A stretch of 46,925 nucleotides of DNA from Promethearchaeota archaeon (lineage in GTDB: Archaea > Asgardarchaeota > Lokiarchaeia > Sigyniarchaeales > SOKP01). The notes under the pieces are model-generated. The model saw nothing but the letters and a program-made list of their open reading frames with translations, was not told where the DNA came from and did no database searches. The DNA is taken from assembly GCA_018238625.1 (NCBI GenBank), contig JABCSY010000020.1:1-46925 (forward strand), read 5' to 3'. How positions within the stretch are numbered: the stretch's first letter is position 1; every line of letters begins with the position of its first letter. The translations under genes were made by a program, and so were the position numbers. Below, piece by piece: positions 35,391 through 46,925 of this stretch.

Positions 35391-35633
35391 TCATAATTTC
35401 CTAACTAAAATGTTATTTGTGCTACTAAGAATCTCGATTTTAGGCCTTTTTTGTATCTCTACGATGAGATTAACTTGATTCTTTATGGTTCTCCAATTAG
35501 ATTTAGTTTCACGAGCTAAATTGCTAATTGTATGGAGTTTTCCATCTTCTAAGATATCAAAAATGCTATTTACTATTTCGATTAGTGTTTTCCGTTCTGT
35601 TTTAGATTTATTTATTTTGCTTATTCCTATCAC
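35391..35633 (-). CDS. Small winged-helix DNA-binding protein
   Basis: TISNLARETKSNWRTIKNQV HTH. The track's GTG lies within the AGGTGA RBS; possible ATA start at 35624. Confidence 0.7.
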   Translation of the reverse strand: MIGISKINKSKTERKTLIEIVNSIFDILEDGKLHTISNLARETKSNWRTIKNQVNLIVEIQKRPKIEILSSTNNILVRKL

Positions 35634-36275
35634 CTAATGAATAGAATATATTTCTAATTATTCATATTTACATAATAATGATATATCAATTGTATTAATT
35701 AAATAAACATTTAATTTAATATAAGCGTTATATATAATTAAATAAACATTATATTTAAATACATAGATTCATTATAAATATACATACCTGAGTCTTAAAA
35801 AGCTATGAATGTATTTTAAAATAAGAAATTCATCTATTTATAATATTAAAGTTGGATTGAACTAAAGAGGAAATACAAGGATCAGCTTCAATTAAGACTA
35901 TCTGAGAAAGAAAAAGAAGAATTACGGGAATAATTACAAGAGAGTTGAAGTAATTAAAGTTTTAAAACAAATTATAAATCTATTTATTGTTTTCTAAAAA
36001 ATTAATTATTTTAATTCTTTTTAATAAAATAGATATAAAAATGATTTGACATCCTTTAATCGCAATTGTTCCTTTAAATTAACCTGAATATCAAATGAGA
36101 TATTCAAACAGAAACAATATATTAAAACGTTGTAATATCCTAGAGTTTTTTAATTTGCTTACTCAAATTGGTTAATTTAATGAAATAGTTAATTGTAAAT
36201 TAAAAATAGTTAGCGATTAATATCATTAATTCGATTTAAGTTAAAATTAAAAAAGATTATTTCAATGGCGATGAA

Positions 36276-36542
36276 ATGAATAAGCAAGAAAATTTTACAA
36301 AAAGAGTGTATGAAATTGTATCTGAGTTAAAACTTCCCTTAGTAGATGATAAAGTTCAAGATAGCGCTAAATTTAAATCAAATAACGCGATTGTTATGGT
36401 AAAATTCGTTTTTGAAGAAGATGAAGCAGTAATACGTGGTTTTCTCAGTTTAGCTGAGTATTTTCACACTGTAATTATAAAAAAAAAAGATAAATTTTAC
36501 ATACCTCATGACTATAAATTGTTTACTTTGAAAAGTATTTAA
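36276..36542 (+). CDS. Hypothetical protein
   Basis: 88-aa ORF with ATG and protein-like composition. Confidence 0.65.
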   Translation: MNKQENFTKRVYEIVSELKLPLVDDKVQDSAKFKSNNAIVMVKFVFEEDEAVIRGFLSLAEYFHTVIIKKKDKFYIPHDYKLFTLKSI

Positions 36543-36644
36543 TAATCCTTTTGTCATTTTACTAAATCTTTTCGAGGTTAAACAAAATCGAAATTAAAAT
36601 TTCAAAAATTATGATAAATTTGTTAAAAATATGTAAAGAAAATC

Positions 36645-36914
36645 GTGATTAAAATGCATAAATATTATTGTAAAAAATGTAATAAATATCATTATCGAGG
36701 TAAAATCTATAAAGAACATTCGGATTATAAAAAAGAAGAATTTAATAAAGACAACTATCCCGATGTTGAAAATATAAAGATAAATCTCGACACACTTAGA
36801 CCAATTGCTAAACGACAGCTGCGCAGGTTGTTAAAAAAAATGGAATCATCTAGCAATCATGATCTTTATAAAAATGAAATTATTAAATTAATAAGAAATG
36901 AAAAGAGGCGGTAA
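36645..36914 (+). CDS. Small protein with N-terminal CxxCxxxH...H zinc-finger-like motif
   Basis: YYCKKCNKYHYRGKIYKEH; stop is 2 nt before the TBP start. Confidence 0.7.
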   Translation: MIKMHKYYCKKCNKYHYRGKIYKEHSDYKKEEFNKDNYPDVENIKINLDTLRPIAKRQLRRLLKKMESSSNHDLYKNEIIKLIRNEKRR

Positions 36915-36916
36915 TA

Positions 36917-37540
36917 ATGGCAGATGCAAATAATTTTCAAGAAGTAAATGAAATTAAATTAGATTTTAAAATAAATAATATTGTAGCAACAGCAAAACTA
37001 GATATTATTGAAAAATTAGATCTTGTTAAATTATCGCGAAAATTACATGATGCTGAATATCAACCAAAAAGATTTCCTGGAGTCATCTTTGGGCAAGATA
37101 ATCCTCGAGCTACATTTTTAATTTTTTCAACGGGTAATATGGTGGTCACCGGATTTAAAATTGCAGAAGATGCAGAGAAAGTAGTTAATAAATTATTAAA
37201 AAAGGTAAAAAAGATTGGGATTAAATCATCTAATCCCGAAATTATTATTCAAAATATTGTTGCAAATGGTGATTTACATGCACTTATAAATTTAAATAAA
37301 GCAATATTACTAATGAAATATCTTATGTACGAACCTGAAGTCTTTCCAGGGTTAATTTATTATATGAAAGATCCCCGCGCAGTATTTCTACTATTTTCTA
37401 CTGGTAAATTTGTTTGTACAGGGATAAAAGAGAAGAAAATTTTAAAAAAAGCTGTTTTAAAGTTAAAACGAGAGATTAATAATATGGATGTAACTAGTGA
37501 AAAAGTTATCGAAGATGAATTTGAGTTAACATTTCTATAA
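36917..37540 (+). CDS. tbp: TATA-box binding protein
   Basis: Two repeats: NIVA...YQPKRFPG...LIFSTGNMVVTG and NIVA...YEPEVFPG...LLFSTGKFVCTG. Confidence 0.97.
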   Translation: MADANNFQEVNEIKLDFKINNIVATAKLDIIEKLDLVKLSRKLHDAEYQPKRFPGVIFGQDNPRATFLIFSTGNMVVTGFKIAEDAEKVVNKLLKKVKKIGIKSSNPEIIIQNIVANGDLHALINLNKAILLMKYLMYEPEVFPGLIYYMKDPRAVFLLFSTGKFVCTGIKEKKILKKAVLKLKREINNMDVTSEKVIEDEFELTFL

Positions 37541-37579
37541 AAAATAAGTATCTATAAAAAATGTGAAAATTGAATAAAA

Positions 37580-37795
37580 ATGGTTAAATTCTGTGAAAAG
37601 TGTGGGGGAATGATGCGTCCATCTAAAGATAAGGATCAAAAAATTCTTGTATGTAATTCATGTGCTCAAATTAAACCCTTAAAAGAGGATTATATTGATT
37701 TTTATACAATTCATAAAGAAATATATCATCCCCCCGGAGAAGAATTCAAAAATTTAGAAAAAATGAAAGACTGGAAAAATTCTAAAGAAAAGTAA
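37580..37795 (+). CDS. RpoM/TFS-type N-terminal zinc ribbon protein, C-terminal ribbon absent
   Basis: MVKFCEKCGGMM...LVCNSC; no second ribbon and no RSADE motif. Confidence 0.8.
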   Translation: MVKFCEKCGGMMRPSKDKDQKILVCNSCAQIKPLKEDYIDFYTIHKEIYHPPGEEFKNLEKMKDWKNSKEK

Positions 37796-37820
37796 ATTCC
37801 CAGAAAATATCCCTTTTTTA

Positions 37821-38351
37821 ATGTATAAATTTCAGGTTTTAAAATATATGAGATTAATATCTTGGAAAAAAGTAAAATCATGGAAATGTATCGCATGTGG
37901 AGAATGTTGTAACTGTTTTAATGTCCCCTTGAAATCTATTGAATATGCTAGAATGATTAAAATCTTTGGGAATGAAATTTTTGATTTAAACATAAATCCA
38001 GTTAAGATTTTTCTTAAACGAAGAGAAAATGGGAGTTGTATTTTTCAATATTATTTATATGGAAAATGGATTTGTGTAATACAACAAATCAAACCTATAG
38101 TATGTAAAATTTTTCCATTTTCAATTTCTAAATCAAGTAATAAAAAAGCGCTCTATAAGTATAAAGGAAACCTATATAATATTTATTTAGAAAGGAGCTG
38201 TAAAGGAATAAAATTAGGAAAACCTTCTAATGAGTTTATCTATAAGATATTACCTAAAGCGATTGAGTTGAGTCTAAATCCAGAAAAGTCACACCATATA
38301 TTAACATCTCAGTTATTATTAGATCCTTTAAATCAAAATTTTTTAAATTAA
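37821..38351 (+). CDS. YkgJ-family (CxxCxxCC) cysteine-cluster protein
   Basis: CIACGECC, CIF, CVIQQIKPIVCKIFPF, CKGI. Confidence 0.85.
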   Translation: MYKFQVLKYMRLISWKKVKSWKCIACGECCNCFNVPLKSIEYARMIKIFGNEIFDLNINPVKIFLKRRENGSCIFQYYLYGKWICVIQQIKPIVCKIFPFSISKSSNKKALYKYKGNLYNIYLERSCKGIKLGKPSNEFIYKILPKAIELSLNPEKSHHILTSQLLLDPLNQNFLN

Positions 38352-38392
38352 ATCACTTTAAAGAGAATTTAATAATAACTATATACAATTAT

Positions 38393-38450
38393 AGAATTAA
38401 CAGAATTAACAGAATTAACAGAATTAACAGAATTAACAGAATTAACAGAA
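38393..38450. repeat. Perfect 9-bp tandem repeat (AGAATTAAC) x6 plus AGAA
   Basis: Read directly from the sequence. Confidence 0.97.
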
Positions 38451-38462
38451 AATAATAAGTAG

Positions 38463-38660
38463 ATGAAAAATTTGACAGACAGAAAAGAAATAAAGAGAAG
38501 AAGAGAAAAATTGAAGATTAAAATAGTCTCAAAAATAAAAAATCGTTCTAAAAAAAAGAATGTTTTAAATGAGATATCAAAAGATATAGAAAAAATCAAA
38601 CTTGAACCTGAAAATTTGATATTAATAGAATATATTGACAAAAAAATATCAAATCCATAG
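38463..38660 (+). CDS. Small basic hypothetical protein
   Basis: 65-aa Lys-rich ORF on the same strand as its neighbours. Confidence 0.4.
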   Translation: MKNLTDRKEIKRRREKLKIKIVSKIKNRSKKKNVLNEISKDIEKIKLEPENLILIEYIDKKISNP

Positions 38661-38713
38661 TTATTTTGATTAATATTTAATGAAAAATGAAAAAATAAAA
38701 GAGGTGAAATGAT

Positions 38714-39376
38714 ATTAATAACTTTAAAAATAAAAATTCCTTTCCATTAATAGGCGATAAATTTCCAGAGATGGAAGTAATAACAACCCACGGTAAAAAG
38801 AGATTACCAAGGGATTTTAAAAAACAGTGGTTTGTATTATTTAGTCATCCCGCAGATTTTACACCAGTTAGTACTACTGAATTTGTAGCTTTTGCAAAGC
38901 GATATGAAGAGTTCCAAAAAATTGATTGTAAATTAATAGGGCTCTCCATAGATCAAGTTTTTTCACATATAAAATGGGTAGAATGGATTAAGGAAAAATT
39001 AGATATAAAAATACCTTTTCCAATAATCGCAGATAACGGTGATGTAGCCACTAAACTGGGTATGACACATCCTAGTAAAGGACCTAATACTGTTAGAGCT
39101 GTCTTTATTGTTGATCCAAATGGAACAATTAGGTTGATTCTCTTATATCCACAAGAGCTTGGTCGAAACATAGATGAAATTATTAGAATTGTTAAAGCGC
39201 TGAAAATTGCGGATCAAGAGAATATAATAATTCCAGCAAATTGGCCAGATAATGAATTAATTGGACAGCAAGTTATAATACCACCACCAACCGATGAAGA
39301 AACAGCAGAACAAAGATCTAAGGAATTTAAATGTTATGATTGGTGGTTTTGTTATAAATCGTTAGAAGATGGTTAA
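38714..39376 (+). CDS. Archaeal Prx6-type peroxiredoxin with peroxidatic Cys replaced by Ser
   Basis: [32 protein letters not shown]. Conserved PLIGDKFPE lies upstream of the track's ATG at 38771; start inferred at ATT 38714. Confidence 0.9.
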
Positions 39377-39468
39377 AAACTAATTTTTTTTTAATTTACT
39401 TTTTTTCAGAAATTTATTTTGATGAATAATCTATTATTAAGATTAATTAAGAAAACTCTAATTATAAT

Positions 39469-40107
39469 TTAAATATTTAATGCTTTTTTCAAGATGTTTT
39501 TATTAGATTTTGGATAATATTGGGAATATTTTAATATCTTTTCCTCAAGAATTCCATCCAATACCAATAATTTAGAGAGCTTAATTAATATTATTTTTTC
39601 ATTTGTATGATTATATTCCCACAAATAAATTAAATCTAAAATTGTTTTTTCGAGATCTGAATATTTAACCTTTTTATTTATCGTTCCAAATTTAAAGAAA
39701 GCATTTTTAACCTTTAAAAACCTAAATTTTTTCCCCAAAATCTCTATTGGCTTGTTTATTAAAAATCTATCATTTATTATGTATAAATATTCATCTTGAT
39801 TTTCATAATCGATATTTAGTAATTCAAATGCAGTATATAGCCCATAATACCAATTTTTAACATGTTTCTGTTTTAACGCTTTTGCTACAAGTTCTAGAAT
39901 AGGATATTTTAGTGTATTCTTGCGAATTTCATCAATAGTTTTTACATAATAAATGTTATCTAAGACATTTACCAAATATCCTCGAGAAATTAAATAATTG
40001 CTAATAACCCTATGATTATAATATAACTCTTTAGAATACTTTTTTAATTCTTCATAAGATATAAATTCTTTATTATCTTGCCTTATCTTTTTTAGAACAC
40101 GAATCAT
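39469..40107 (-). CDS. AbiEi-like (type IV TA antitoxin-type) transcriptional regulator
   Basis: N-terminal wHTH (YLISRGYL...IYYV), WYYGLYTA, YSDLEKTILD. Confidence 0.7.
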   Translation of the reverse strand: MIRVLKKIRQDNKEFISYEELKKYSKELYYNHRVISNYLISRGYLVNVLDNIYYVKTIDEIRKNTLKYPILELVAKALKQKHVKNWYYGLYTAFELLNIDYENQDEYLYIINDRFLINKPIEILGKKFRFLKVKNAFFKFGTINKKVKYSDLEKTILDLIYLWEYNHTNEKIILIKLSKLLVLDGILEEKILKYSQYYPKSNKNILKKALNI

Positions 40108-40126
40108 ATATTAATCTCCCTCAAAA

Positions 40127-40756
40127 TTATACAAATTTTTTTCTTCTAACATAAAATATAAAGTGGATTGAACCTTTCTTATTTTTTATTGGAATTTTTT
40201 TTTCTAAGGCAGGTTTTATAGTCTCTAATATACTAAATTTATCCCCTTTAGAATTCTGTGTATAAATAATTATACTTAATATCCCATATTGTCGCAGATA
40301 ATGTATATATAAAAACCTGATAGAAAGGTATCTTTTTTTTTTTCTTGCTTGAGAATAAATTTTATTAGCAATAACTAAATCAAACTTACCATTATAGTAA
40401 GTAAAATCAAGAAGTGATACTCCTTTAAAAACATTAAGAGTGTGAGTAGAATAGTTTTGTTGCTTATTATAGTGTTCAATAAAGGACTTCAATATCTCCT
40501 TTGATTTATTAGTAATATAGAATTGCGCATCTGGATAAATTATATGTAATTCTGGATAAATTCGTAATAGATCTTTTCCAATTATCAAGATCTTTTTTCT
40601 TTTTCTTTTTTTGTTTAGAGATAATTTTTTAATTAGATCTGTTAAAACTTGATATTGTTCAAATTCATTTATAATGATCTTATTATTATTTAAATCTAAT
40701 ATTTCTCCATTTTTTTCGGTTAAATGTTGAATATTAACTTTTCCATTTGAATTCAA
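40127..40756 (-). CDS. Hypothetical protein, degenerate class I SAM methyltransferase-like
   Basis: KILIIG, YPDAQF, GKFDLVIA, LRQYGILSI fit the MTase motif order, but there is no GxGxG. Confidence 0.5.
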   Translation of the reverse strand: MNSNGKVNIQHLTEKNGEILDLNNNKIIINEFEQYQVLTDLIKKLSLNKKRKRKKILIIGKDLLRIYPELHIIYPDAQFYITNKSKEILKSFIEHYNKQQNYSTHTLNVFKGVSLLDFTYYNGKFDLVIANKIYSQARKKKRYLSIRFLYIHYLRQYGILSIIIYTQNSKGDKFSILETIKPALEKKIPIKNKKGSIHFIFYVRRKKFV

Positions 40757-41198
40757 AAATTTTAAACACCTCTTTTAAATTTAAAATAAACTGCTAAATA
40801 TTAATGAACTTAATCTGAAAATTTGAACCTACTTTTCTGAATCTACAAAATCGATAAAAGATATATGCTCATAAGTGCTTTAGAAAGGTAAGAACATTTT
40901 CCGCCTTTTAAATCCAAAGTTTTAAATTTGGAAAATGTAAAATCTCTAGCTTTTTGAGATTTTTATAGAATTTTCAAATAATAATAATACTACAATACTT
41001 AAAAATATTTATGTTTTTATATCCAGCTCTATTTTTTAATCAATTCACTAAACTGATTTCCATTCTTAATTTTTTATTCTTATTTCTGAAAAAAGTTTTC
41101 GAAATCTATATAACATTAAGAATAGAATCCAAACAAATTGAAAATACTTAAAGTTGTATATCTTTTTTATGATTTTAACTAGATTAACTTCCACATTA

Positions 41199-41528
41199 TT
41201 AGTCTTCAATTATGATATTTTCTTTGGGAAAACCCTCTTTTATAAGAAATTTCTTTAGTCTAAAGCGGTGATCTCCTTGTAGTTCAATACCATTATCTTT
41301 GAATGTCCCTCCAGATGCACATTTTTTTTTAGCTTTAGTGCTGAGTTCATCTAAATCGATATTGAAATTACCAATAAATTTAATAATTGTAACCTTTTTA
41401 CCCCACCTTCGTTTTTCATTATATATCTTTATTTGTTGATCTTCAGCTTCTAGATTTTCACATATACATAATTCCTTTGGAAAACTACAAACCTTACAAA
41501 TATTTTCATCTTTAATTTCTGTTTTCAC
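41199..41528 (-). CDS. sui1: Translation initiation factor aIF1 (SUI1)
   Basis: CKVCSFPKELCICE, RRWGKKVTII, CASGGT, IELQGDHR. The track's GTG lies within the GAGGTG RBS; possible ATT start at 41516. Confidence 0.95.
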   Translation of the reverse strand: MKTEIKDENICKVCSFPKELCICENLEAEDQQIKIYNEKRRWGKKVTIIKFIGNFNIDLDELSTKAKKKCASGGTFKDNGIELQGDHRFRLKKFLIKEGFPKENIIIED

Positions 41529-41548
41529 CTCTTTAAAATTTAATTCAA

Positions 41549-41662
41549 TTATAATTTAATAGAAAGGAAATCTTTTTCTTGAACGAGTGTAGGATTATTT
41601 ATATTCATATCTTTTAGTCCATTAATTATATTAATACTAATTCCTATTTCTTGGAAAGTCAT
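41549..41662 (-). pseudogene. Truncated DEAD-box helicase N-terminus (Q-motif only, 37 aa)
   Basis: AAGGTGA RBS then MTFQEIGISINIINGLKDMNINNPTLVQEKDFLSIKL*, matching F.ELG......L......PT..Q. Confidence 0.7.
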
Positions 41663-41712
41663 TAATAATCACCTTTAGTTTATACTTTTATCCTTGTTAA
41701 TAAATAATTATT

Positions 41713-43785
41713 TTAAACATAATTAACTTGAAATGAAGATAATTTTCCATTTTTGATTATTATCTCTCGATATGCTCCTACTTTCCTAAGTCTTTTGAAG
41801 GATTTTAATCCCAAGGCAGGAGTTTGAACTATGAAGGGACTATATTTTTGAATATTCTTTTTATTTTTACAAATCTCAGAATAATCATCATAAAATACTG
41901 CAATCGATGATTCTTTGTTTTCTTCATCGTTAGAGCTATTTTGTAAACATTTCTTCAATCTATATTCATTTAACATGTGTGTATGACCTGATATTGTAAG
42001 AGTACAATAATCATAACAAAAATTAATCAATTTCTCCCAATTAGTAGAAATCGTTCCATGTTTAATATTAAATTTATCGTCAATACGCGCTTTTTCTCTT
42101 TTTCTCTTTAAACTGTTAAATTTTGATTCTCTGAACTGATCTATTTCTATTCTTATCATTTTTTTAAATTTTTTTTTAATTCGACTTAAAATACCTCGTT
42201 TCTCTCTTGTATTTATAGGAGGTGCATGTAAACAAAGAAAAATTTGAAGTTTTTTATTAAACTTACTCTTAATAATATTATTTAAAAATTTTATTTGCTT
42301 CTGAGTAAGACCTGTTAGAGAGGGCCTTCCTGATATAAAATCTTTCATTTTTTTATAGGAATCCGCCCCTGTATTTAGAAAAATAAATAAAAAATTGCCT
42401 AATTTTAAATAGTAATCTAATGAAGCATTTATTTCTGATAAGTATCCTGTTAATGCTTTTTCACTCTTTAGAATTGCTCTAATTGGAGAAGCTGAATATT
42501 CATCTTTTAATGCTTGAGCTTCAATTTTTTTAAGCCCAATTTTTTTATAAATTCCTCCCCAATTTAAATCATATTGCCAAGGTCGATAATCATGATTCCC
42601 GGGAATGGTAAAGATAGGGCATAAGATTTCTTCCGATTTTTTTATACCTTTTTTATTAGTTTGCTCTATATTTAAGATAATATCTTTGAAAATTTTCCAA
42701 TTACTATTCTCATAAGGAAAAATAGTTTTTTGATTTGATGATATTTTACTAACATTGGTAAAATCTACAATATCTCCTGTAATAATTACAAAATCAATTT
42801 TATTATTGATAACTTTTGTATTTATTTTTTTAACAAATTTTCTAAATAAATTGTTTGGATTAATCAGTCTTTTTTTAAATGAGAGATCAATTTTAAAAAG
42901 AGATTTTCTAATATCATACTTATCATTTGATTTTGGCGGATTAGTTTTTATTTGATTTATTTTTTTGATATTTTTATTCCTAAGATTTCGATACATATTA
43001 TTAATTTTATTAAACATTTCATCATTTCTTTTTGCTATATGTAAATCAGTAGCTTGCACGATATTGATATTACTCCAATCATTTTTTGAAATGACAATCG
43101 CATGATAATTTATTTTTTTATCCAAATTAGAATTTGCAAATAAAATATCAAACATAATGAAATTTCTATTTGATAAAAAGTCTAAAATCTCATCAGTTAA
43201 ATTAAATTCTAAAGTAATTGTATAAAAATATTCTAAATTACCAAACACTTCTAATTTTCTTAAATAATTCTGTGGTTTACAATATTGATCATCAATATAT
43301 ATTGAGTCATTAATCTTTATTGGAGTCGATGATTTTAGGTTTACGATTTTAGTGATTATTGGAGTTCCCCTAAAAGCACGAGGTTTTATTTTCTTTGAAT
43401 CTTTCTTTCTTATTTTTTTAATTCTTACTTGTTTGTTCCCAAATTTATCTAATTCTTCAATTGAAATTTCAAATCCTTTTTCTTTTTTTTTAAATAAGAA
43501 AATAATTTTTAATTTTTTCCATAAACTTTTAATTTTTTCTATTAATCCTCTCTTTTCGAGAAGTTGCTCTAATTTCCACTTATATTCAAAAATAGGTATA
43601 ATTTTTATATTGTCAGTTAATAATTCTTTTACTTTTTTTGGATTCTTTATATGAGTTATGATTAATAAATCTGTTTTAAAGTTTTGCTTAGATAAATTTC
43701 TGCCTATATTCAATATTCTGGGATGTCCAATGTTTGGACTAACCAAAAATAAGCCTTTAGAATTCATAATAACAATCACAATCAC
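41713..43785 (-). CDS. Calcineurin-like metallophosphoesterase with long basic N-terminal region
   Basis: TDLH, TGDIVD, PGNHD, LHAPP, SGHTH. Confidence 0.88.
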   Translation of the reverse strand: MIVIVIMNSKGLFLVSPNIGHPRILNIGRNLSKQNFKTDLLIITHIKNPKKVKELLTDNIKIIPIFEYKWKLEQLLEKRGLIEKIKSLWKKLKIIFLFKKKEKGFEISIEELDKFGNKQVRIKKIRKKDSKKIKPRAFRGTPIITKIVNLKSSTPIKINDSIYIDDQYCKPQNYLRKLEVFGNLEYFYTITLEFNLTDEILDFLSNRNFIMFDILFANSNLDKKINYHAIVISKNDWSNINIVQATDLHIAKRNDEMFNKINNMYRNLRNKNIKKINQIKTNPPKSNDKYDIRKSLFKIDLSFKKRLINPNNLFRKFVKKINTKVINNKIDFVIITGDIVDFTNVSKISSNQKTIFPYENSNWKIFKDIILNIEQTNKKGIKKSEEILCPIFTIPGNHDYRPWQYDLNWGGIYKKIGLKKIEAQALKDEYSASPIRAILKSEKALTGYLSEINASLDYYLKLGNFLFIFLNTGADSYKKMKDFISGRPSLTGLTQKQIKFLNNIIKSKFNKKLQIFLCLHAPPINTREKRGILSRIKKKFKKMIRIEIDQFRESKFNSLKRKREKARIDDKFNIKHGTISTNWEKLINFCYDYCTLTISGHTHMLNEYRLKKCLQNSSNDEENKESSIAVFYDDYSEICKNKKNIQKYSPFIVQTPALGLKSFKRLRKVGAYREIIIKNGKLSSFQVNYV

Positions 43786-43795
43786 AATCTTAATT

Positions 43796-44704
43796 TTAAT
43801 TTAATGCTTTTTTAATATCCTTTACTCTAGTTCTTAAAGTCACTTCAGTAATTTTAGAAATATATGAAACTTCAGTTTGGGTCTTTCGGTGCTTAGTAGA
43901 TCTTGCTGCCATATAAATAGCAGAAGCAGCAAATCCTTTTGGATCTTTTCCATTTGTAGAAAGCCCTTTTTTAGAGGATGTTTTGAGTAACCTCAATGCT
44001 TCTTTTTGTATTTTAATAGGAATTTTTAACTTATTTCCAAATCTAAATACCAATTTTTCTGGTGTGATCGGGCGATATCTTAAACCTAATTCGGGTAAAA
44101 CTTCTTTAATTAATATTCCTAAAGAGCGAATAAGCGTTCTTCGAGAAATTATACATACCTCGTTTATTTCTTCCAATAGTATAGGAAGTTCATGAACTCG
44201 AATCGCAGCATATAAGGAAGCTGATACAAAACCATCTATTGATCTACCCATTGTTAATTTCTTTTTTGCAGCTGATATATAAATTCTCCAGGCTGTTTGA
44301 TAAATGTATTCAGGAATATTTAATTTAGAAACAAGTAGCTTCATTTTAGGTTTAGCTTCCCATAAATTTCTTTCTAATCCCGAAGTTAAAGATCTTTGTA
44401 TTTTTGATAAACGTTTGAATAATGGTCTTCTTTTAGTATTAATATTATAACCTTTAGAATCAAGATTATTATTTGAAAGTAGGGTTCTTGGACCAAAATT
44501 TCTCCATTTTACTTGCGTTCTTTTCCTTTTTCTTAATTCCTCAGGTGTGAAAGCTCTTCTCTCTTTTTGAAATAATTGAATACCAAATACCATTCCACAA
44601 TTTAAACATACTAAATTACCATTTCTTAAATCCACACATTGCTTTTCACAACATTGTTCCTTTTTATTTAATCTAGAAAGGCTTTTTTCTTTATAATTAC
44701 TCAT
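43796..44704 (-). CDS. tfb: Transcription initiation factor IIB (TFB)
   Basis: Zn ribbon (VCLNCG), ERRAF B-reader, ERNL, GRSI...ASLYAA, GKDP, TQTEVS...TEVTLRTR. Confidence 0.96.
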   Translation of the reverse strand: MSNYKEKSLSRLNKKEQCCEKQCVDLRNGNLVCLNCGMVFGIQLFQKERRAFTPEELRKRKRTQVKWRNFGPRTLLSNNNLDSKGYNINTKRRPLFKRLSKIQRSLTSGLERNLWEAKPKMKLLVSKLNIPEYIYQTAWRIYISAAKKKLTMGRSIDGFVSASLYAAIRVHELPILLEEINEVCIISRRTLIRSLGILIKEVLPELGLRYRPITPEKLVFRFGNKLKIPIKIQKEALRLLKTSSKKGLSTNGKDPKGFAASAIYMAARSTKHRKTQTEVSYISKITEVTLRTRVKDIKKALN

Positions 44705-44833
44705 TTTTAACTTTACTAATCTTTTAACTAAAAAATTCAGAGTGATTCGAATTATTTAAAATCACAGCTAACAAAATTTGATGAAAACTTTAGAAATTAG
44801 TTTTCAAAACTTTTTTTATATAGAATTTAAAGT

Positions 44834-45187
44834 TCAAAACATATCACTAAAATCTTTAATTGGTTCAAACTCATCTATCAAATTAAACTTTTCAAATTTT
44901 TCCTTTTCTAACTTAAAAATATATGATTGAATTAATGCTAATAGTTTATAAATATCATTATTTTTTGGTTTATAGTATTTAATTTTACCTTTTTTTTCAT
45001 ATTCTATGAGATCGGCATCATATAGTTTTTTTAATTGATGTGAAGCATAACTTTGACTAATGTTCAAAGATGTTTGAATTTTGATTGATGTACTTGGATT
45101 ATCTTTTAAAAATTCTAAAATATTTAATCTTGTAGGATCACTTAGTACTTTGAAGAAATTTGATATTCGTTTTTTCAAGTCTTCCAA
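44834..45187 (-). CDS. ArsR/SmtB-family transcriptional regulator
   Basis: FFKVLSDPTRLNIL, SQSYASHQLKKL, KKGKIKYY. Confidence 0.92.
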   Translation of the reverse strand: MEDLKKRISNFFKVLSDPTRLNILEFLKDNPSTSIKIQTSLNISQSYASHQLKKLYDADLIEYEKKGKIKYYKPKNNDIYKLLALIQSYIFKLEKEKFEKFNLIDEFEPIKDFSDMF

Positions 45188-45393
45188 ACTTTATAATCGC
45201 CTTATTATCTTATATTAATTCAATCATTCTAAATTTTTTAATAAAAAATTTCAATCTACACTTTAATAAAAGTAATAATATTATATAAATTTATTTATTA
45301 TAATAATTAAATATTGTAAAATCGAAATATTTAAATAAATAGGTACATTATTTATAATTAGAGTTAATTATAATAAAAATTAAAATTTTAGAG

Positions 45394-45936
45394 GTGAAAA
45401 AGATTTACGAGAAAATCTTAATTGCAATGGATAATTCAGATGATGCTTTCCGTGCGGCAAGAAGAGTTGTGGAGATTGTAAAAGATCAAAACTCCAAGAG
45501 AAAAATTGCTCAAAATAATAAGCAAGAAGTAAGTATGAAAGTTAAGAATTCACTTGAAGTTGTCGCTTTTCATTCAACAGAACATCGCAAATTGCCTGAG
45601 AAAATTGCTTTATGCGTACCTTCATCATTCGGGCCAAGTTATTCAATTCCATCAGTGGATTATAGAAAACTTCAAGAAGAATATGAACTACATGGTACCA
45701 AAATCTTAAAAAAGATAGAAGAGATCTTTGAAAAAAACCATATTGATATAGAAACACGTTTAATCTCAGATGAAGAACCTGAAGATTACATAGAAAAGGT
45801 AGTGGAAGAGGAAAACTTTGATCTTATAGTTTTAGGCAGTAAAGGCGAACATTCAAAATTAGAACAAATATTTTCAGGTACAATTGCTCAGAAAGTTGTA
45901 AATGATGTACCTTGTGATGTTCTTATTGTTCGATAA
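45394..45936 (+). CDS. Universal stress protein (UspA family)
   Basis: YEKILIAMDNS, DLIVLGSKG...GTIAQKVV...CDVLIVR; probable true start is ATT at 45403. Confidence 0.93.
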   Translation: MKKIYEKILIAMDNSDDAFRAARRVVEIVKDQNSKRKIAQNNKQEVSMKVKNSLEVVAFHSTEHRKLPEKIALCVPSSFGPSYSIPSVDYRKLQEEYELHGTKILKKIEEIFEKNHIDIETRLISDEEPEDYIEKVVEEENFDLIVLGSKGEHSKLEQIFSGTIAQKVVNDVPCDVLIVR

Positions 45937-46073
45937 TCATTATTTATATAAATCGTTCGTGCAATTAAAGGAGTTATCTACTATATTTACATTTTTAATT
46001 GAAAAGTCGATATTTTATTATTAGATTTTTCTTTTATTTATAATAAAAAGAATCAATAAGTAGGTGATCAAAT

Positions 46074-46322
46074 ATAATAAATCTTAAAATTATTAAGAAA
46101 GATGGTTCTGAAGAGGATTTTGATCCAAATAAGATTTTGGAAGTTTGTAAAAAAGCAGGAGCTTCTGAAAGTACATCTAAACAAGTGCTTGATCAGATTG
46201 TTAAAAGATTATTAAAAGTTAAAAGTTCTAAAATAAGGAGGATGGTGAATAAAAATTTAAGAAAGATAGATAAAGAAGCTTTTGATAATTACAGAAAACA
46301 TTATATTAAAGAACCATTTTAA
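46074..46322 (+). CDS. Stand-alone ATP-cone domain protein
   Basis: Frame extends upstream of the track's TTG as INLKIIKKDGSEEDFDPNKILEVCKKAG, the ATP-cone signature; AGGTGA RBS then ATA at 46074. Confidence 0.8.
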   Translation: MINLKIIKKDGSEEDFDPNKILEVCKKAGASESTSKQVLDQIVKRLLKVKSSKIRRMVNKNLRKIDKEAFDNYRKHYIKEPF

Positions 46323-46469
46323 GCGTTATGAAACTGATTAAAGGATAAAGGAAAAATTACATATTAGCAGTTTTCGGCAATCTATAGGAACTTCTCTGCC
46401 AATTTATACAAATCCTGAAATTTTAGATATCACTAAATAATAAAAATTTAGACAATTGGAGGTGAAAGA

Positions 46470-46730
46470 ATGAAAATGAAATCGATTTTAAAAAATCTGA
46501 AAACTAAAAAGGTTAGCATATTTGTAAGAAATTTAGGGGAATATAGTCAGTTTCGAGGTGTATTAAAAGAAGTTACTGAAGAAATTATTGTATTAATGGC
46601 AAGATATAATAAATTTATTTATATCCCTATATCAGAAATTGTGGTTGTTATAGAAAATGAAGTAAAATCAGAAACTCTAAAAGAAAAATTAGCAAATCCC
46701 ATCACAATAAGTTCTGTTGCTCAGAATTAA
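46470..46730 (+). CDS. Small Sm/Hfq-like fold protein
   Basis: GGAGGTG RBS; KKVSIFV...FRGVLKEVTEEIIVL...IYIPISEIVVV pattern. Confidence 0.6.
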   Translation: MKMKSILKNLKTKKVSIFVRNLGEYSQFRGVLKEVTEEIIVLMARYNKFIYIPISEIVVVIENEVKSETLKEKLANPITISSVAQN

Positions 46731-46925
46731 TTATTGAATAATTTCAGAAAGAAGGGTTAATAAGTGGAAAACACATTGATAAATTCATTAGTGAATATGC
46801 TCACATTTTTTATCATAAAAAAGAGCTAGAATTACTACAGGCAGCTTTAAACTTAAAAAGAAAAAAATTCTTCAACCACTTACTCCTATCTTTCAAGAGC
46901 TTTGATTAGTTTTCAAGTTACCTTT

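Follow-up and report, generated by a model that had tools for sequence, protein, structure and literature searches.

Can ATT and ATA serve as start codons in an Asgard archaeon? The question is raised by a 46,925-nt stretch of DNA from a Promethearchaeota archaeon (contig C60 of genome G000; 4.29 Mb, 201 contigs, 32% GC), which we analysed as a whole and call the window, all positions being numbered over its full length. Five of its genes, coding for a small DNA-binding-like protein named wHTH (winged helix-turn-helix), a 1-Cys peroxiredoxin (Prx), a paralog of the archaeal initiation factor aIF1, a universal stress protein (USP) and a stand-alone ATP-cone protein, carry ATT or ATA at the start position behind a strong Shine-Dalgarno (SD) motif. 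The 16S rRNA of G000 ends in ...GGATCACCTCCT, which makes GGTG the core of the SD complement GGAGGTGATCC, and GGTG lies 5 to 9 nt upstream of the ATT or ATA at all five sites. A previous sequence-only reading had listed these sites, and each of its coordinates and spacings was confirmed when we read the sequence (Table 1). Its three ATG genes for comparison, reported at 5 to 8 nt from GGTG, were correct as well (155, 8 nt; 41662, 7 nt; 46470, 5 nt), and ATG genes showed the same GGTG spacing profile as the five sites. Our analysis indicates that ATT and ATA behind GGTG are very probably working near-cognate start codons, used genome-wide in this archaeon and shared in part, for individual genes, by its relatives. 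Judging from sequence comparison, initiation would take place at these codons with Met as the first residue.

Two of the five genes, those for Prx and ATP-cone, offer no canonical start. In both, the TGA of GGTGA is in frame, and conserved sequence precedes the first canonical start, as had been proposed: the AhpC-TSA domain of Pfam aligns from residue 13 of Prx, of which the first in-frame ATG is residue 20 (38771), and the ATP-cone domain aligns from residue 5, ahead of TTG 46137 at residue 22. Between the in-frame TGA of Prx and the conserved PLIGDKFPE, not a single canonical codon was present. We searched 30 relatives, namely 18 genomes of the same genus and 12 from eight other genera of the order. 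The only close Prx ortholog (G008, 89% identical) has kept GAGGTGA, the 7-nt spacer and ATT. It lacks both the out-of-frame ATG (position of 38709) and the in-frame ATG (position of 38771) of the window copy, which rules out a frameshift as well as a downstream start; a frameshift from ATG 38709 had been considered and was rejected, as G008 has ATT at that position. In the ATP-cone gene, a second ATA directly follows the first, at 46077. No ATP-cone ortholog was found with the window query among the 30 relatives.

The other three genes (wHTH, aIF1 and USP) have the GTG of GGTG in frame, a feature that the sequence-only reading did not mention, and this GTG is therefore a rival start for them. 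They could begin there, on leaderless or very short-leader mRNAs, with the ATT or ATA as an internal Ile codon. For wHTH, an in-frame TAG stands immediately before the GTG (35633-35631), and the ortholog in G008 (96% identical) has ATT at the codon where the window has ATA, a change that would be synonymous within a gene; because of the in-frame GTG, this comparison is uninformative for the start. For aIF1, the GTG (41528-41526 in the window) is in frame in four of the four copies of the island type, and an AT-rich, TATA-like sequence read by eye lies about 25 nt upstream. However, in three USP paralogs (L054, L055 and L056), which are among the eight further ATT alleles, a stop codon interrupts the frame between GGTG and ATT; and whereas the ATT is conserved, the residues encoded from GTG up to it are not. 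Moreover, the housekeeping aIF1 keeps the ATT column despite having GTG out of frame and a TGA in frame, and the genome-wide enrichment described below is equally strong at spacings that put GTG out of frame. A GTG start of these three genes thus seems unlikely to us.

In the genome-wide count of codons 5 to 9 nt after GGTG, both ATT and ATA were enriched. An event was defined as a GGTG followed by at least 100 open codons in some frame and preceded, at a distance of at most 45 nt, by a stop in that frame. The 432 events gave in-frame codons at spacings 5 to 9 as follows: ATG 117, ATT 67, ATA 55, TTG 40, ATC 17, GTG 16 and ACG 12. As controls we used in-frame codons 30 to 90 nt downstream, seven decoy 4-mers and out-of-frame codons. 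Compared with the downstream codons, ATA was enriched 2.3-fold (p = 1e-7) and ATT 2.0-fold (p = 7e-7); besides ATG, TTG and GTG, only these two were significantly enriched, and ACG was marginal (2.3-fold, p = 0.013). TTT, TTA and TAT were depleted after GGTG, and the AT-rich set AAA, AAT, TTA, TTT and TAT had a ratio of 0.76. Among events without a canonical start, ATT accounted for 21.8% after GGTG against 8.6% after the decoys, and ATA for 20.5% against 7.4% (2.5- to 2.7-fold). Out-of-frame ATT and ATA were not enriched at these spacings but fell. The excess had the same strength where the GTG of the SD is out of frame (spacings 5, 7 and 8; 71 observed against about 39 expected) and where it is in frame (spacings 6 and 9; 51 observed, about 26 expected). 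The enrichment was specific in three respects, namely near-cognate codons, reading frame and spacing. GGTG also behaves like an SD at these sites: its match to the anti-SD was 5.39 nt long at near-cognate sites and 5.64 nt at ATG sites, against 4.78 nt where there was no plausible start (p = 1e-6).

SD-led genes are a minority in G000, as GGTG lies 5 to 10 nt upstream of only about 150 of 3449 first ATGs. With a broader SD definition (3618 open reading frames, ORFs), we obtained an excess of about 268 ATG, 92 GTG or TTG, and 111 ATT, ATA or ATC. These numbers suggest 70 to 110 near-cognate-initiated genes in G000, or a quarter to a third of its SD-led starts. We listed 115 candidate near-cognate sites, 110 of which lie outside the low-GC island described below, on many contigs and in genes of unrelated functions. 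For a test on protein domains we took the 42 candidates outside the window that are 20 or more codons away from the next canonical start and have no canonical codon upstream, and scanned 40 of them with Pfam (two with exactly 20 codons were dropped). In 17 of the 40, the Pfam alignment starts upstream of the next canonical start, mostly at residues 2 to 22 and at profile positions 1 to 2; 14 have their domains downstream and are uninformative, and nine had no match. The 17 supported cases include the MGMT DNA-binding domain, IF-2B, PIN, Ras, GNAT and DsbH, as well as Response_reg (from ACG), AFOR_N (from ATC), GCHY-1, FAD_binding_3 and rubrerythrin.

Orthologs place ATG in the very column held here by a near-cognate codon, in pheT, V-ATPase subunit C, USP, Prx and aIF1. 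The essential, single-copy gene pheT begins with ATA in nine genomes of the genus, ATT in four and ATG in four, and with ATG in 10 of 10 genomes from other genera. GGTG precedes all 13 near-cognate alleles and none of the four ATG alleles of the genus, which suggests compensation. For V-ATPase subunit C, the 17 genomes of the genus have ACG (13), ATG (3) or TTG (1), with GGTG 6 to 8 nt upstream of the 13 ACG alleles, and the other genera have ATG (7) or ATT (1; G022, L165). Neither of these genes, nor the housekeeping aIF1, has a canonical start available. In the USP family, ATT occupies the column in G000 and eight other genomes of the genus, and ATG, GTG, TTG or CTG in paralogs or other genera. 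The codon immediately precedes the conserved Y(K/N/E)KIL and the Usp profile aligns from residue 2; the sequence-only reading had called this the usual family start.

The gene for aIF1 differs from pheT and V-ATPase C in that ATG is absent from its housekeeping copies. G000 has two copies, the one in the window and a housekeeping copy (G000:C22:35776-36096), which are 63% identical. In the 13 housekeeping genes of the genus, the leader AAAGGTTGTGA is followed after 10 nt by ATT in every case, with an in-frame TGA three codons before the ATT and GTG out of frame, and no ATG, GTG or TTG occurs ahead of the conserved Cys-x2-Cys knuckle. Over 55 loci from species representatives (49 distinct sequences, from related genomes, so that the counts overstate their independence), the housekeeping start is ATT in 53, ATC in two and ATG in none, with an in-frame stop just upstream. 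A weak start is thus conserved on aIF1 to a greater degree than on other genes (ATG in 0 of 55, against four of 17 for pheT and three of 17 for V-ATPase C). This contrast with pheT and V-ATPase C, whose start codons change freely, suggests that selection keeps the start of aIF1 weak. Other Promethearchaeota have ATT (L215, L218) or TTG (genus g2, L222), and ATA without a canonical alternative was seen in genus g5 and one Helarchaeota record. Records from DPANN, Thermoplasmata and Bathyarchaeia have ATG or GTG. Island-type aIF1 genes, of which the window holds one and three further records the others, combine GAGGTG and a 9-nt spacer with ATT or ATA in the same column as the housekeeping ATT. 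Among the other initiation factors of G000, the genes for aIF2 alpha and aIF2 beta have ATG as the start codon, and that for aIF1A has GTG.

The 49 distinct housekeeping leaders (for example L045 and L171-L214) also share, 10 nt before the ATT, a nearly invariant AGGTTGTGA, which amounts to an SD mismatched at two central positions. A second conserved block, TCTATTATTTTTTAG, lies about 45 to 60 nt upstream of the ATT and may be the promoter. RNAalifold found essentially no conserved RNA structure in the aIF1 leader (-0.22 kcal/mol), and the protein alignment held no residue separating the AUU-using genus from ATG-using genera. NCBI gene calls do start aIF1 at the ATT ('MKDDDIC...', under the name YciH). 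Non-NCBI pipelines return proteins of 84, 74 or 69-70 aa from internal TTG or GTG starts, with the zinc knuckle lost (P0001, P0044, P0060, P0079, P0109). One call under P0001, 'MWKKSIKDDD', begins with 'MW' upstream of the ATT, suggesting that the in-frame TGA was read as Trp.

The recurrence of these codons in relatives also bears on whether the starts are decayed ATGs of dying genes, the alternative that the sequence-only reading had offered, or errors of sequencing or assembly in a metagenome-assembled genome. The island is very AT-rich, the window Prx is without its catalytic Cys, and the bin consists of 201 contigs with an estimated contamination of 7.6%, all of which would suit such an explanation. 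However, identical codons recur in independently assembled genomes, including the ATT of Prx in G008 and the aIF1 ATT invariant in 13 genomes of the genus, and essential single-copy genes are affected (pheT, V-ATPase C, aIF1). Decay would have left ATG in orthologs together with relaxed selection on these copies; we found a mixed column in USP, an invariant ATT in aIF1, intact ORFs and dN/dS values below 1 (0.34 for Prx and 0.07 for wHTH, both against G008). Near-identical island sequence (37000-46925; 62-95% of sampled words) was further found in 19 DNA runs. Together with an RNA run that matched 10% of the sampled words, there were 20 matching rows from eight studies, whose labels read cold-seep, marine-sediment or plain metagenome. 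Decay or error is therefore very improbable as the origin of these codons.

A decoding change, such as a second initiator tRNA reading AUU and AUA cognately at starts, appears equally far-fetched. The tRNA set is incompletely known, as Aragorn predicted 28 tRNAs in G000 with no tRNA-Met among them, and this leaves some room for it. Nevertheless, a regular-expression search that left the first anticodon base free found a single anticodon arm of the initiator type, GGGCTCATAACCC, with the anticodon CAU. In addition, four near-cognate codons including ACG fit a tolerance of mismatches better than one new anticodon. The Aragorn predictions also include a tRNA-Pyl (CTA) and a pair of suppressor-like tRNAs (TTA), possibly false calls in an intron-rich tRNA set.

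Working near-cognate starts leave the second part of the sequence-only reading to be weighed, namely that the five genes, clustered with their own aIF1, form a regulon in which start-codon stringency sets expression. All five lie in a low-GC island that also houses second copies of information-processing genes (Table 1).

Table 1. Position of the low-GC island, the five near-cognate sites and the associated genes in the window (CDS, coding sequence)
Feature	Position	Strand	Details
Low-GC island (GC 0.24-0.26), reaching the contig end	35200..46925	.	GC profile, Pfam
wHTH-like start	35622..35634	-	GGTG 35634-35631, 6-nt spacer, ATA 35624-35622
Small DNA-binding-like CDS (wHTH), 77 aa from ATA	35391..35624	-	Weak Myb_DNA-bind_5
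TBP, extra copy	36917-37540		Pfam
RPB9-type Zn ribbon, extra copy	37580-37795		Pfam
Prx start	38701..38716	+	GAGGTGA, GGTG 38703-38706, 7-nt spacer, ATT 38714-38716
1-Cys peroxiredoxin CDS	38714..39376	+	Pfam AhpC-TSA residues 13-141, 1-cysPrx_C
Island aIF1 start	41514..41531	-	GAGGTG 41531-41526 (GGTG 41529-41526), 9-nt spacer, ATT 41516-41514
aIF1 (SUI1) paralog CDS, 105 aa, N-terminal Cys-x2-Cys knuckle	41199..41516	-	Pfam SUI1 E = 6.8e-21
TFB, extra copy	43796-44704		Pfam
USP start	45391..45405	+	GAGGTG, GGTG 45393-45396, 6-nt spacer, ATT 45403-45405; GTG 45394 in frame
Universal stress protein CDS	45403..45936	+	Pfam Usp residues 2-177, profile 2-141
ATP-cone start	46062..46076	+	AGGTGATC, GGTG 46063-46066, 7-nt spacer, ATA 46074-46076
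Stand-alone ATP-cone CDS	46074..46322	+	Pfam ATP-cone residues 5-78

The clustering is real: with ORFs of at least 75 codons, five ATT or ATA events fall within 10.5 kb against a genome mean of 0.27, making this the densest window in the genome (scan-corrected p about 0.004). The island aIF1 has a strong SD, extra TBP and TFB copies accompany it, and the near-cognate starts of the island are kept in the island homologs of G008 and G006. A private regulon was not supported, since the co-located feature is not confined to the island, as the 110 candidates elsewhere and the same ATT on the housekeeping aIF1 make plain. Furthermore, the five genes have no evident common pathway, island-type aIF1 was seen in four genomes only, and the ratio of near-cognate to ATG events tracks local GC, from 18:36 above 0.34 to 7:4 at 0.28 or below (local GC of 0.319 for near-cognate events and 0.327 for ATG events, p = 0.01). 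We consider such a regulon quite unlikely, and a tolerance of near-cognate starts combined with AT mutation pressure explains the cluster without it. In this accessory island of 25% GC, SD-led genes are frequent and AT pressure would turn ATG into ATA or ATT at little cost.

Pfam upheld the gene identities proposed earlier for Prx, aIF1 (SUI1), USP and ATP-cone, but not for wHTH, with Myb_DNA-bind_5 as its only match at 17.8 bits against a curated cut-off of 21.7. The island is partly syntenic with G008:C365 (Prx and wHTH) and G006:C23 (USP and aIF1). A viral origin was considered and rejected, as PHROGs gave no hallmark gene; it returned unnamed families for TFB and SUI1 and weak regulator and NrdD-like matches. 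No tRNAs or RNA families were found in the window. Other low-GC islands (0.24-0.26) with extra information-processing genes occur at G000:C46:2500-10000 and G000:C77:12500-22500; the latter has a TFB with an ATT start, and a Cdc6 with an ATA start lies near the former. Upstream of the island aIF1, a 37-codon ORF (41549-41662, minus strand) has a perfect SD, with GGTG 7 nt before its ATG, and 19 nt (41548-41530) separate its stop from the GGTG of aIF1. This ORF, which we take to resemble the N-terminal Q-motif region of DEAD-box helicases, could be what is left of a gene, or else an upstream ORF.

Several observations weigh against near-cognate initiation or narrow its reach. The in-frame GTG is a possible start for the window copies of wHTH, aIF1 and USP, which therefore do have a canonical codon available. 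The same GTG is shared by every island-type aIF1, and the island aIF1 of G006 has in addition an ATG in the same frame, 12 codons further upstream. Of the 115 candidates, roughly half are expected by chance. In the window Prx, Ser (AGT, 38870-38872) replaces the peroxidatic Cys (PVCTTEF) that is present in the G008 ortholog, in a paralog of the same genome (C56:5139-5789) and in six homologs elsewhere. Its dN/dS of 0.34 is not low, and this copy may be losing function; the protein may be catalytically dead, or the Ser may be a strain variant. In samples of 360 to 400 kb from other genomes, the ratio of ATT, ATA and ATC near GGTG to those far from it was 1.73 in G026 (p = 0.03), 0.78 in G007, which belongs to the same genus as G000, and 0.69 in G024. 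With so mixed a picture, we claim the genome-scale trait for G000 only. Individual candidates in G007, G024, G026 and G022 look convincing. ATT candidates in these genomes, with names read from N-termini, include a thermosome-like and a response-regulator-like gene (G024:C17:363460 and 381090), a UvrB-like gene (G007:C34:37635) and a MazF-like gene (G026:C1:1349291). Finally, the case for autoregulation of aIF1, to which we now turn, is an argument from conservation and analogy.

For initiation at these sites, we propose that the SD core GGUG (within GGAGGUGAUC) base-pairs with the 3' end of the 16S rRNA and would thereby put the P site 5 to 9 nt downstream. There, the ordinary initiator Met-tRNA (anticodon CAU) would accept AUU, AUA or AUC with a third-base mismatch, or ACG with a second-base mismatch. 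In bacteria, AUU, AUA, AUC and CUG starts are rare and isolated exceptions, unlike the genome-scale signal seen here, which is conserved on housekeeping genes. For archaea, the available text of two reviews lists only AUG, GUG and UUG as starts (PMC7531240, PMC4705826). The near-cognate starts of G000 resemble these canonical starts in being SD-led, with the usual anti-SD ...AUCACCUCCU and a spacing of 5 to 9 nt; they differ in that, of all SD-led starts, roughly one quarter to one third are AUU, AUA, AUC or ACG. In the literature we found no published account of AUU or AUA as starts in archaea, nor of aIF1 beginning with AUU; the latter is implicit in NCBI annotations but apparently undiscussed.

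The invariant AUU (rarely AUC) of the housekeeping aIF1, behind the interrupted SD AGGUUGUGA at 10 nt, would most likely reflect negative feedback. In the S. solfataricus system, aIF1 is reported to discriminate against AUU (PMC4705826, PMC6237735). When aIF1 is scarce, stringency would drop and AUU-initiated synthesis of aIF1 would rise. Autoregulation of this kind has a bacterial counterpart in IF3, which, according to the available text of PMC4705826, is autoregulated through the AUU start of infC. As in infC, the gene for the fidelity factor itself begins with AUU, here conserved over the 55 loci, and the feedback logic that we propose would be identical. Unlike IF3, aIF1 has the SUI1 fold, which is unrelated, and its leader carries the interrupted SD. 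Eukaryotic eIF1 is reportedly autoregulated through a poor AUG context, in work ascribed to Ivanov and colleagues (2010). That factor is a homolog of aIF1 with the same function in start-codon stringency, and in both cases a weak initiation site lies on the factor's own mRNA; in aIF1 the weakness would come from the codon (AUU) together with the SD rather than from a Kozak context, and initiation would be SD-guided without scanning. By analogy with these systems, infC-like autoregulation is the most economical reading of the aIF1 start to which the data point. A wider model, which we put forward tentatively and hold to be possible rather than probable, is that stringency in Lokiarchaeia-type Asgard archaea is set by this aIF1 feedback (obligatory AUU, attenuated SD) at a relaxed set-point, and that a second, strong-SD aIF1 in accessory islands could shift this set-point and thereby re-tune all near-cognate-initiated genes together.

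If this model is true, the aIF1 loop would be convergent with that of bacterial IF3 and parallel to that of eukaryotic eIF1, a third independent case of a fidelity factor controlled through its own weak start site, and the evolution of eIF1-type autoregulation would become directly testable. Because of the relaxed set-point, between a quarter and a third of the SD-led genes, essential ones included, would be able to use AUU, AUA, AUC or ACG. Prodigal-type calls truncate proteins with near-cognate starts, so that Asgard proteomes built in this way would be systematically wrong at perhaps 2-3% of genes, and studies of the domains, localisation and phylogeny of Asgard proteins can be misled where N-termini are missing. 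Archaeal initiation is usually pictured as limited to AUG, GUG and UUG. Routine use of AUU, AUA, AUC and ACG in a lineage near the origin of eukaryotes would alter that picture, and so would an invariant AUU on the gene homologous to eIF1.

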